From a virus (lineage: Duplodnaviria > Heunggongvirae > Uroviricota > Caudoviricetes), in IMG/VR virus record IMGVR_UViG_2737471819_000003, positions 1-6,815 of that record: a stretch of DNA of 6,815 nucleotides, one strand, 5' to 3'. The stretch's first letter is position 1; every line of letters starts with the position of its first letter. Positions 1 to 3,000 of the stretch are shown here, piece after piece. Made by a program: the position numbers.

Positions 1-3000
1 CCACGCGCACTAACCCTTTTCTTACCTGACCGACAAAAGTTAAAGAATCTGAGCATGATGCAATTGGTGTTACATCATGTACCAAATCAAGCCACCCATT
101 AGGTAACCCAAGCGCGGCTTCAAATTTTCTTGCTAGTTTATCCCCTATGTTTCGAGTGCTTTTTTCACCGGAGACTTGCGTGAGTTGAGAAGGGCTAACC
201 CCAAGCTTATCGGCAAAGCTTGCATTAGTGTTACCCGCGATTTTTTTATGCTCATCTAGCAAAAACGCCAGATTCGATTTGCGAATATCTTTGTTTTCCA
301 TCTCACAATTTTCCCTCTATTTAGCAAATGGATAAATACGCAATATGATAAATTTACATTGCGGTTGATTTATCAAAATGGTAAAGTTATTCTGTGTGAT
401 AAACGGAGGCACTAATGAGTAATGAACTACTACGCTGGCGAAAAGAGGCTTCTAGTGAGGAATGGAAGCGACTCGCCGCATTAGCGAAAACTTCAGTTGG
501 CTATCTTGACCAGATTGCATATGGATTTCGAAGAGCTTCCCCTGATAAAGCGAATGCAATCGAAGAAGCTACTCGTAATTTCACGGGTTATAAACCTGTG
601 AAAAAGGAAAACCTAGTGTTCGTATCGCGTAGAGCATCGGCTGCATAAGTAACACCGCTATTTTCACAATGGACATTCGTCCTACGTCGCTGACAAAGCG
701 AGTCCCAATATATCTGACCAACTAAGGCTACATGCGTTTCCACGCATACCTTTCAACTAACTATTCACTATTGGAAATCTTAAGAAATGGAACAAACAAG
801 TTACAGCAAACTATCCCAGCGTGACGTTGATCGCGCAGAAACAGATTTACTCATCAACCTGTCAACGCTTACCCAGCGCGGTCTGGCAAAGATGATTGGC
901 TGTCATGAATCGAAGATAAGCAGAACGGACTGGAGGTTTATTGCTTCGGTCCTGTGTGCTTTCGGAATGGCATCAGACATCAGTCCGATTAGCAGGGCTT
1001 TTAAGTATGCGCTTGATGGACTCACCAATAAAAAACGCCCGGCGGCAACCGAGCGTTCTGATCAAATACAAATGGAATTTTAACAACATCCAACGAGGTA
1101 ATTATATGCGAAAAACGCAGGAAAATAAACGCGTTAATCACCGAAAAGATGTGCTACGTGACCAGTTTTATCAGGGGGTTAATCCAGCAATAGCTGTGCC
1201 ACTGAGAGAAATACTTAACAGGTACAAAACTTCGGAGAAGTCAAAATGAGCATGAATCTTATGGCTAAGGCCATGAATATAAAGGTTGGCAACCCACTGA
1301 GAAAACTGGTTCTGATTAAACTTGCCGATAACGCCAATGATAATGGCGAATGCTGGCCTTCATATCAACATGTCGCTGACCAGTGTGAGGTGAGCAGATC
1401 GACAGTAAAAAGTCACATTAGGGCACTGGAAGATATGGGGCTTTTGAAAAGGGAATTCAGAAGAAAAGGAGAGCTTAACCAGTCAAACGTTTTTTATCTG
1501 ACGTTGGATAATGCACAACAAATCCAACCAGAATTAGGTGGGGCAGGAGCTGACCGGGGTGGGGCAGGAGCTGACCCCAGAACCTATCACTCTTTTGAAC
1601 CAGTCAATGAACCTAAAAACATTAAGTTCGAACGTGTCCGAACGAAGTGCGAAAAATCATCTGACCGTCACGAAGAAACCGACAAGGCATTCGAGGAAAT
1701 ATTCTGGTGTGCAGGCATGCGGAAAGCCGGGAAGAAAAACGCAGCTTCGGCATTCAGAACACAGTTCAGGGAATGGCGTAAAACTACCGGGGGTACGGCA
1801 AGCGAGTTTGCCACGATGCTGGCAGAAGACATCGCATGCAGGAATGGTAAGCAGTTCGGATTCGACAGGTTGTTACCATCGAGCTACCTGAACGGTCAGC
1901 GCTGGAACGACGAGAAGCCAGAAACCATTCAACCACAAGCCAGACCATCATCCGCAATCACCGTATCGAAAACTGGCTACGTGTTTTTCGACAGGTGAAC
2001 CATGAAATCAAAAATCAAATCGCTACTGGTCGCTGGTTATAACCACGGCTGGTTAAGTATTTCGTTTGTCGATTTCTGGTTTAAAAATCTCAATCTGAGG
2101 GAATCATGACGCCAAGTGAACTTAGCGACCTGCTTTGGGCGCAGGTTGACAGGGTGGCTCCGCACCTGTTGCCAAACGGCAAGAAAGAGGGGCATGAGTG
2201 GGTTGCCGGTAACGTTAACGGTGACAAGGGAAACAGCCTTAAGGTCAACCTTAGCGGCAAGAAAAAATGGGCTGATTTCGCTGAGGGAGACGGCGGTGAC
2301 ATGCTTGATTTGTGGATGGCATGTCGTGGAATTAACCTGCATCAGGCTATGCAGGAAGCGAAAGCATTTCTCGGTATCAAGGATGACGATCACCATTTCG
2401 ATGCCAGACGTGAGAAGAAATTCTCCAGACCTGATCGCAAGAAAATCGCCCGCTACGTTACCAGAACAGAATCCCATCTTGAGTACCTGCAATCGCGTGG
2501 CATATCGCCAGAAGTCGTAAAGCGCTACGAGGTTGTCAGCGGCAAGGTGTGGAATGGAGAACGAGAACTGGATGCTCTGGTGATTCCGTACAAACGCGAT
2601 GGTGAGTTGTTGCAGGTCAAGCGAATCAGCACTGAGCGCCCGGACGGGAAGAAAGTCATTATGGCAGAAGGTGATTGCGAACCTTGTCTGTTCGGATGGC
2701 AGGCTCTGGACGCTGGCGTGAGGGCGGTTGTACTTTGCGAAGGCGAAATTGATTGTATGAGCTATGCGCAATACGGCATCTCGGCGTTATCCGTGCCGTT
2801 TGGTGGCGGGAAAGGCGCTAAGCAGCAGTGGATTGAGTTTGAGTATCACAATCTCGACAGGTTTGAGGAAATATTCATCTCGATGGACGTTGATGATGTT
2901 GGTCGTGAAGCCGCAAGGGAAATCGCAAGCCGACTCGGTGAACATCGTTGCCGTCTTGTTACACTGCCGTACAAAGACATCAACGAATGCCTGATGAACG

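Follow-up and report, generated by a model that had tools for sequence, protein, structure and literature searches.

A probable nutR site of the H-19B type downstream of cro in a lambdoid, Shiga toxin phage-like genome

In the stretch of viral DNA analysed here (6,815 nt; hereafter, the window), a cro-like open reading frame and gene cII are separated by 138 nt that contain a small hairpin with a GACAA loop, preceded at a considerable distance by a boxA-like sequence. A preliminary description took these elements for a nutR-like site serving an N-type antiterminator encoded outside the window, and considered their spacing atypical. The locus raises the question of whether this is indeed the nut site of an early right operon and, if so, which N protein would act on it and how its elements are accommodated at such a distance. 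Our analyses indicate that the sequence at 656–701 is very probably the nutR of an H-19B-type lambdoid early right operon, acting as RNA through N.

Gene context and layout of the site

The window corresponds to the immunity and replication region of a lambdoid, Shiga toxin phage-like genome. At its left end, a cI-like repressor gene on the minus strand, represented by its 5′ portion (1–301), runs leftward off the window and is separated from cro by an operator region. A consensus scan located there a candidate pR promoter (TTAGCA-17-TATGAT; 321–349, plus strand), which would be the source of the nutR-bearing transcript; repeated operator-like half-sites (GATAAAT/ATTTATC) surround it. The rightward early operon starts with the cro-like gene (415–648, plus strand; 77 aa), taken from the ORF list and annotated as cro in the phages BP-4795 and AU5Stx1 (98–99% identity). 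It is followed by cII (787–1083, plus strand; Pfam Phage_CII, E = 2.4e-34), the first gene to require read-through of the terminator tR1 for its expression, and, rightward of it, by genes for an O-like HTH protein, a Toprim/helicase protein, NinB and an HNH endonuclease. Megablast comparisons of positions 1–1300 revealed 98–99.8% identity to the Stx1 phages BP-4795, AU5Stx1 and Stx1_121427, and also matches to E. coli prophages, of which that of strain ERL05-0623 is 99.6–99.8% identical. Rightward from around position 639, the window also matches Stx2a phages carrying other immunity regions, and the gap between cro and cII therefore belongs to a separately exchanged module.

The site spans 656–701, between the cro-like ORF and cII, which is the position of a nutR site. 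Its 3′ element, on the plus strand, is a hairpin with a perfect 5 bp stem (TCGCT, 687–691; AGCGA, 697–701) and the pentaloop GACAA (692–696), that is, the short perfect stem and purine-rich, GNRA-like loop of 4–5 nt found in boxB elements. This hairpin, read from the sequence and included in the targets of the H-19B nutR oligonucleotides discussed below, is present in both the MFE and the centroid structures obtained by RNA folding (-6.4 kcal/mol, z = -2.4), so that the boxB geometry proposed in the preliminary description is exact in its coordinates and in its fold. A scan of both strands found a single instance in the window of a GACAA loop on a perfect 5 bp stem, and first-order Markov simulations of the window gave an expectation of 0.015 such hairpins per window sequence; likewise, the 13 nt boxB core (CGCTGACAAAGCG) has one exact occurrence. 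A boxB-like sequence with two mismatches inside cro (CCCTGATAAAGCG, 540–552) was rejected because it lacks a complementary stem, and the minus-strand ORFs 581–721 and 588–743, which run across the site, were considered mechanical and unsupported. An Rfam scan of positions 1–1300, with E values up to 10, returned only sub-threshold chance matches, none of them at 656–701, and no nut or boxB family reached the threshold in that interval.

Directly 5′ of boxB there is a TACG linker (683–686, plus strand), recognized in the table of variants from related sites. The boxA-like element proposed earlier was located as CGCTATTTT (656–664), followed by CACAA (the whole, 656–669, on the plus strand and assigned through the target of the oligonucleotide RS662), whose 3′ ACAA (666–669) is conserved. 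The linear gap from this boxA to boxB (665–686) is indeed 22 nt. Sequence CGCTATTTT shows one mismatch to the CGCTCTTT core, the full consensus being YGCTCTTTA.

The resemblance of the loop to that of P22, pointed out in the preliminary description, proved correct, since the annotated P22 nutL (NC_002371) reads GCTCTTTAA-CTTCGATGAT-GCGCTGACAAAGCGC. The two hairpins share the GACAA loop on a CGCU/AGCG stem, with 13/13 identity in the core, and four of the five stem pairs; the closing pair is G-C in P22 and T-A in the window. Unlike the window, however, P22 nutL has a consensus boxA and a 10 nt spacer without a hairpin, and the boxB of P22 nutR has a different stem (CCGCC-GACAA-CGCGG). The complex of the P22 N peptide with boxB has reportedly been solved by NMR (by Cai and colleagues). 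In lambda, nutR consists of boxA CGCTCTTA, a spacer of ~8–9 nt and boxB GCCCT-GAAAA-AGGGC. The window and lambda have in common the order cro, nutR, tR1 and cII, the logic of the site and its overlap with a Rho-dependent terminator, whereas lambda has a different loop, another member of the N family and a short, unstructured spacer.

Identity with H-19B nutR and the structured spacer

A supplementary table in a study on the N protein of phage H-19B lists the oligonucleotides RS662, RS663, RS664 and RS665, the first of them labelled “antisense to nutR boxA of H-19B” (PMC3526286; Nucleic Acids Res 2012). When reverse-complemented, these four align with the window without a mismatch at 644–667, 665–686, 683–706 and 702–727, respectively. 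Because all four targets match exactly, the site in the window is the H-19B nutR base for base over 84 nt (644–727), a segment that spans boxA, the spacer with its hairpin (671–682), boxB and the start of tR1. Judged by sequence, positions 656–701 are thus an already characterised nutR of the H-19B type, a known and ordinary feature. Annotations from other phages also map here: the “putative N-utilization rightward” of VT2-Sakai to 656–695, and the “putative NutR - boxB” of epsilon34 to 687–701. While the site itself does not differ from that of H-19B, a Stx1 phage, the immunity module of the window does: cI and cro (1–639) are of the BP-4795/AU5Stx1 type, with a mosaic joint at around 639. 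The nutR of H-19B is reportedly the subject of two studies by Neely and Friedman.

The Sen laboratory works with the H-19B nutR (e.g., PMC3526286, PMC4499122). Using nutR/tR1-lacZ reporters and in vitro transcription, H-19B N was found to overcome the Rho-dependent terminator tR1; in H-19B, nutR and rut overlap, and the footprint of N with NusA/G extends over the spacer and boxB but leaves boxA unprotected (PMC3526286). In the window, the tR1 region, a Rho-dependent terminator or rut zone overlapping nutR, was placed at 702–790 (plus strand) from composition, folding and mapped annotations. It is C-rich and G-poor (C/G = 1.83; in cro, 0.79), and a hairpin (ATGCGT-TTCC-ACGCAT) lies within it at 732–747; the “putative rho dependent terminator” of VT2-Sakai and the “tR1” of epsilon34 map to 731–756 and 727–752, respectively.

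The 22 nt gap is unusual in that nut spacers are typically ~8–11 nt long, 10 nt in the case of P22 nutL, and the preliminary description was right in calling it atypically long. RNA folding revealed a further hairpin within this spacer, absent from that description (GGAC-ATTC-GTCC; 671–682, plus strand; -5.0 kcal/mol, z = -4.1). We collected related nutR and nutL sites with the pattern ACAA[C/T]G, 8–22 nt, TACG and boxB, which does not require pairing in the spacer, although ACAA(Y) and TACG are its fixed anchors and their invariance is thus set by the search. All 18 distinct spacer variants close into a terminal hairpin of 4–6 bp, with variable loops, and only 1.8% of shuffled spacer segments did as well. 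The stems comprise six unrelated sequences (GGAC/GTCC, GGGC/GCCC, GGGA/TCCC, GATTC/GAATC, GTCGA/TCGAC and GGTGA/TCACC). With the 12 nt hairpin closed, and only then, the linear spacer is reduced to CACAAT plus TACG, ~10 nt, within the usual range. The long spacing is therefore explained by a conserved spacer hairpin that shortens the linear distance, and we infer that this hairpin acts as a “reducer” of distance. Neely and Friedman are said to have reported that the spacer stem-loop, which they called a reducer, matters through its pairing and not its sequence. We take the long, hairpin-bearing spacer to be a known peculiarity of H-19B-type nut sites.

The closest sister sites are those of the Stx2 phages 933W and VT2-Sakai and of the Salmonella phage epsilon34, which show the same order of boxA, ACAA(Y)G, spacer hairpin, TACG and boxB. 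Their nutR is identical to that in the window in the spacer hairpin (GGACATTCGTCC) and in the boxB stem (TCGCT/AGCGA), but it has a loop of four nt, GAAA, instead of GACAA, and the corresponding N proteins contain GTAASRRRAR or GSAAGRRRER where those of the H-19B type have GNSRSRRRER.

Their boxA is also nearer the consensus than that of the window, both in nutR (CGCTCTTTGTAACAA) and in nutL (GCTCTTTAAACAA). In nutR sites of the type found in the window, boxA is polymorphic, being CGCTATTTT or, as a common alternative in relatives, CGCTCTTTT, and H-19B-type nutL sites have GGTGAATAT in its place, with no recognisable boxA. Both observations are consistent with a weak role for this element. Lambda requires boxA with NusB/S10, whereas antitermination by H-19B N is reportedly independent of boxA, NusB and S10, all three being described as dispensable in work by Neely and Friedman. 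Likewise, boxA may contribute little because it was left unprotected in the footprint of N with NusA/G (PMC3526286).

nutL, gene N and the linkage of boxB loop to N type

The window ends inside the repressor gene and, therefore, nutL and N were read in relatives. In the prophage of E. coli ERL05-0623 (L002) and in BP-4795 (L001), there are exactly two copies of the 13-mer CGCTGACAAAGCG, one in nutR and the other on the opposite strand (positions 3864–3876 of L002 and 2778–2790 of L001). This second copy is the core of a boxB, GCGCT-GACAA-AGCGC, identical in 15/15 positions to the annotated boxB of P22 nutL, and lies upstream of an ORF of 127 aa (MTRRTQFKGNSRSRRRERLKAK...LPNVALYAAGYRKSKQLTAR) that matches Pfam N_peptide (PF25694, E = 1e-15) and contains the arginine-rich motif GNSRSRRRERLKAK. 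The start expected of an H-19B-type N ORF is MTRRTQFKGNSRSRRRER. P22 N (gp24) is a member of the same Pfam family, with 100 aa and 39% identity to the 127 aa protein; the two align at the N-terminal arginine-rich motif, in which they have F, GN, RR and ER in common and differ elsewhere, and at a shared C-terminal tail, LPxVALYAAGxRKSKQxTAR. A sequence search of PDB with the N protein found nothing relevant, the N-peptide entries being too short for such a search.

The N ORF of the near-identical ERL05-0623 prophage also has the features described for H-19B N, namely R3, S11, R15, R18 and the motif “12-RSRRRER-18”. In H-19B, mutations in these residues (R3H, S11F, R15C/P and R18P) are defective and abolish antitermination by N at nutR/tR1 (PMC3526286).

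The gene order in the relatives is N, nutL, OL/pL, two or three ORFs in the position of rex, cI, OR, cro and nutR. Gene N is thus not immediately to the left of the repressor gene but 1.2–3.5 kb from nutR, beyond the rex-position ORFs and OL/pL, a placement and layout that are the same in lambda. Among the matches listed from IMG/VR, GCGCT-GACAA-AGCGC precedes the start of N by 143–276 nt in 91 of the 92 loci in which this start was visible, and N was present in 92 of the 95 relatives with an adequate left flank (86 full-length and six partial matches). Both the leftward nutL with a GACAA boxB and the arginine-rich N-like gene that had been predicted were hence found in relatives, including BP-4795 and ERL05-0623, and comparison with these suggests that the source genome of the window carries N.

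In the remaining three of those 95 loci (L040, L049 and L087, among the matches listed), both nut sites are kept but other ORFs occupy the place of N downstream of nutL. These exceptions illustrate how the site in the window could have ceased to serve N, this gene having been lost, and now function solely within the rut region of tR1, where Rho is loaded; the C-rich, G-poor composition of the region and the overlap of nutR and rut in H-19B (PMC3526286) would agree with this. We nevertheless consider such a loss improbable, given that the relatives that carry N, at the frequency given above for the matches listed, include the closest full-length match, and that the site is intact and identical to the functional site of H-19B.

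Still less probable is a reading of the hairpin at 687–701 as a small intrinsic terminator, or an attenuator, placed at the end of cro and needing no antiterminator. Although it is a stable stem-loop located right after the stop codon, its stem is short, of 5 bp, the bases past 701 (GTCCCAATATATC) do not form a T-run and two terminator scans did not report a site here; moreover, the other arm carries this hairpin too, ahead of N. A stem without a T-run excludes an intrinsic terminator, and nutR continues to be the best explanation for the site.

To examine the correspondence between boxB and N, we scanned IMG/VR with a 22-mer around the boxB of the window, which retrieved at least 119 loci, and with the sister sequence carrying the GAAA loop (933W/VT2-Sakai type), with 120 loci among the matches listed. 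Where nutR has the GACAA loop, it was always accompanied by a nutL with GACAA and by an N with the motif GNSRSRRRER, the N homologue being of the H-19B type in all 92 loci that have one (among the matches listed). Where nutR has GAAA, N contains GTAASRRRAR or GSAAGRRRER, being of the 933W type in 87 loci and of the epsilon34 type in two, again among the matches listed, and nutL also has GAAA (TGGCT-GAAA-AGCCA or AGGCT-GAAA-AGCCT). None of the 181 listed loci with a match to N, in 178 of which the start of N, and hence nutL, was visible, combined elements of both classes. Additionally, among the matches listed, four OR-cro clusters, defined on the 600 nt to the left of nutR, are found with one class as well as with the other. 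The maintenance of this linkage across a mosaic region would be the signature expected of a protein-RNA recognition pair, and the boxB at 687–701 is accordingly best described as a predicted binding site for the arginine-rich motif of an H-19B-type N.

A chance inverted repeat, or a palindrome bound by a protein at the DNA level and with no role in the RNA, would account for the inverted repeat alone and can be practically dismissed, considering the low expectation by chance, the compensatory change of the closing pair (T-A in nutR, G-C in nutL) with pairing kept, the conservation of an asymmetric, strand-specific loop on the transcribed strand of both arms, and the agreement of loop type with the arginine-rich motif of N in all loci examined among the matches listed.

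Proposed operation of the site and its significance

From these comparisons, the nutR at 656–701 would operate as follows. Transcription from pR through cro would produce an RNA with boxA, the spacer hairpin and boxB, in which the two hairpins fold. The first of them (671–682) would shorten the 22 nt between boxA and boxB to ~10 linear nt, the distance found in lambda and P22, and the second, the GACAA boxB, would be bound by the phage N protein, encoded leftward and downstream of the matching nutL, through its arginine-rich N terminus. N, with NusA and other host factors (NusG in H-19B), would then stay on the RNA polymerase, and the modified enzyme would resist the Rho-dependent tR1 (~702–790) and later terminators, resulting in the expression of cII, the replication genes and the nin region. 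Of these steps, the binding of boxB by the arginine-rich motif of N, and the passage through tR1 of a polymerase modified by N with NusA and NusG, have been published for the H-19B type.

A pattern scan identified one such later terminator at 5308–5341 (plus strand), a strong intrinsic-terminator-like site with an 8 bp stem, six of whose pairs are G-C, followed by TTTTATTT. It lies between the replication genes and the genes of the nin region, a position like that of lambda tR2-tR4, and by this analogy it is likely a downstream target of the N-modified polymerase, which would read through it.

The value of these results is mainly in annotation, in that they give boxA, the spacer hairpin, boxB and tR1 definite positions in the window and account for the unusual spacing. 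Furthermore, across several hundred related loci, among the matches listed, the boxB loop type reliably predicts the type of N encoded to the left.

The difference in the loop, a single additional C (GACAA or GAAA), together with that in the N motif (GN-S-R-S or GT/S-A-A-S/G), may define two mutually exclusive classes of N/boxB specificity among the mosaic Stx phages, an idea that we put forward only tentatively from the sequence comparisons. The linkage in the 181 listed loci is compatible with such orthogonality, without proving it, and the literature may already cover this point. If true, prophages of different classes residing in one host would be unable to trans-activate the early operons of each other, and single-crossover hybrids between the two classes would be eliminated.

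N antitermination from nutR controls delayed-early expression and, through Q, that of the late genes and of the Shiga toxin genes in Stx-type phages; the site is biologically important because the control exerted by N and nutR extends that far.

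Mosaic joint and terminator-like hairpins

Blast matches change at a mosaic joint around position 639, at the end of cro: nucleotides 1–639 match BP-4795/AU5Stx1-type immunity, and nucleotides 639–6815 match the Stx2a phages Stx2_16002, Min27 and phi24B, whose immunity regions differ. Within the 3′ end of cII, a strong terminator-like hairpin on the minus strand (1059–1032; 12 pairs plus a T-run) accounts for the weak chance matches to Rfam in this region; at the equivalent position, P22 has an annotated terminator for the oop antisense RNA. Further downstream, between the ORF at 5013–5282 and the DUF7301 gene, there is a strong intrinsic-terminator-like site on the plus strand (5308–5341; AGGCCTGC...GCAGGCCT followed by TTTTATTT), analogous in position to the lambda terminators tR2–tR4.

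An intein-like insert in the replication gene and a homing-endonuclease-like ORF after ninB

The gene at 2106–5012 (plus strand) encodes a Toprim/helicase replication protein of 968 aa containing an intein-like insert (Hom_end_hint, aa 379–424; LAGLIDADG_3, aa 579–634), which separates the Toprim domain from the AAA_25 ATPase part. Several related phages align to the window as two separate segments and cover less of it, suggesting that these phages lack the insert. Immediately 3′ of ninB, and overlapping its stop codon, a plus-strand ORF (6166–6768) codes for a 200 aa homing-endonuclease-like product with NUMOD4 and HNH_3 domains, whereas BP-4795, ERL05-0623 and VT2-Sakai carry a Dam methyltransferase gene in this place.

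The nutL site and gene N in related loci

In the H-19B-type nutL, as in the E. coli ERL05-0623 prophage (locus L002, ca. 3880–3925, minus strand) and in the table of nut-site variants, boxA is not recognisable and GGTGAATAT occupies its place, with an extra hairpin upstream (CACCA-UGGCG-GUGAA region); the 933W-type nutL has a consensus boxA, GCTCTTTAA. Gene N, on the minus strand in ERL05-0623 (L002, 3314–3697) and BP-4795 (L001, 2264–2713), is annotated inconsistently in both records: for ERL05-0623, the RefSeq entry has no more than an ‘antitermination protein’ pseudogene fragment of 69 nt, where there is an intact N ORF of 127 aa, and the BP-4795 record puts the start of N 66 nt upstream of the ATG with a Shine-Dalgarno sequence. 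Three IMG/VR loci (L040, L049 and L087) keep nutL and nutR of the H-19B type, with unrelated ORFs in place of N downstream of nutL; they are perhaps prophages that lack N or are defective, or else phages using N supplied in trans.
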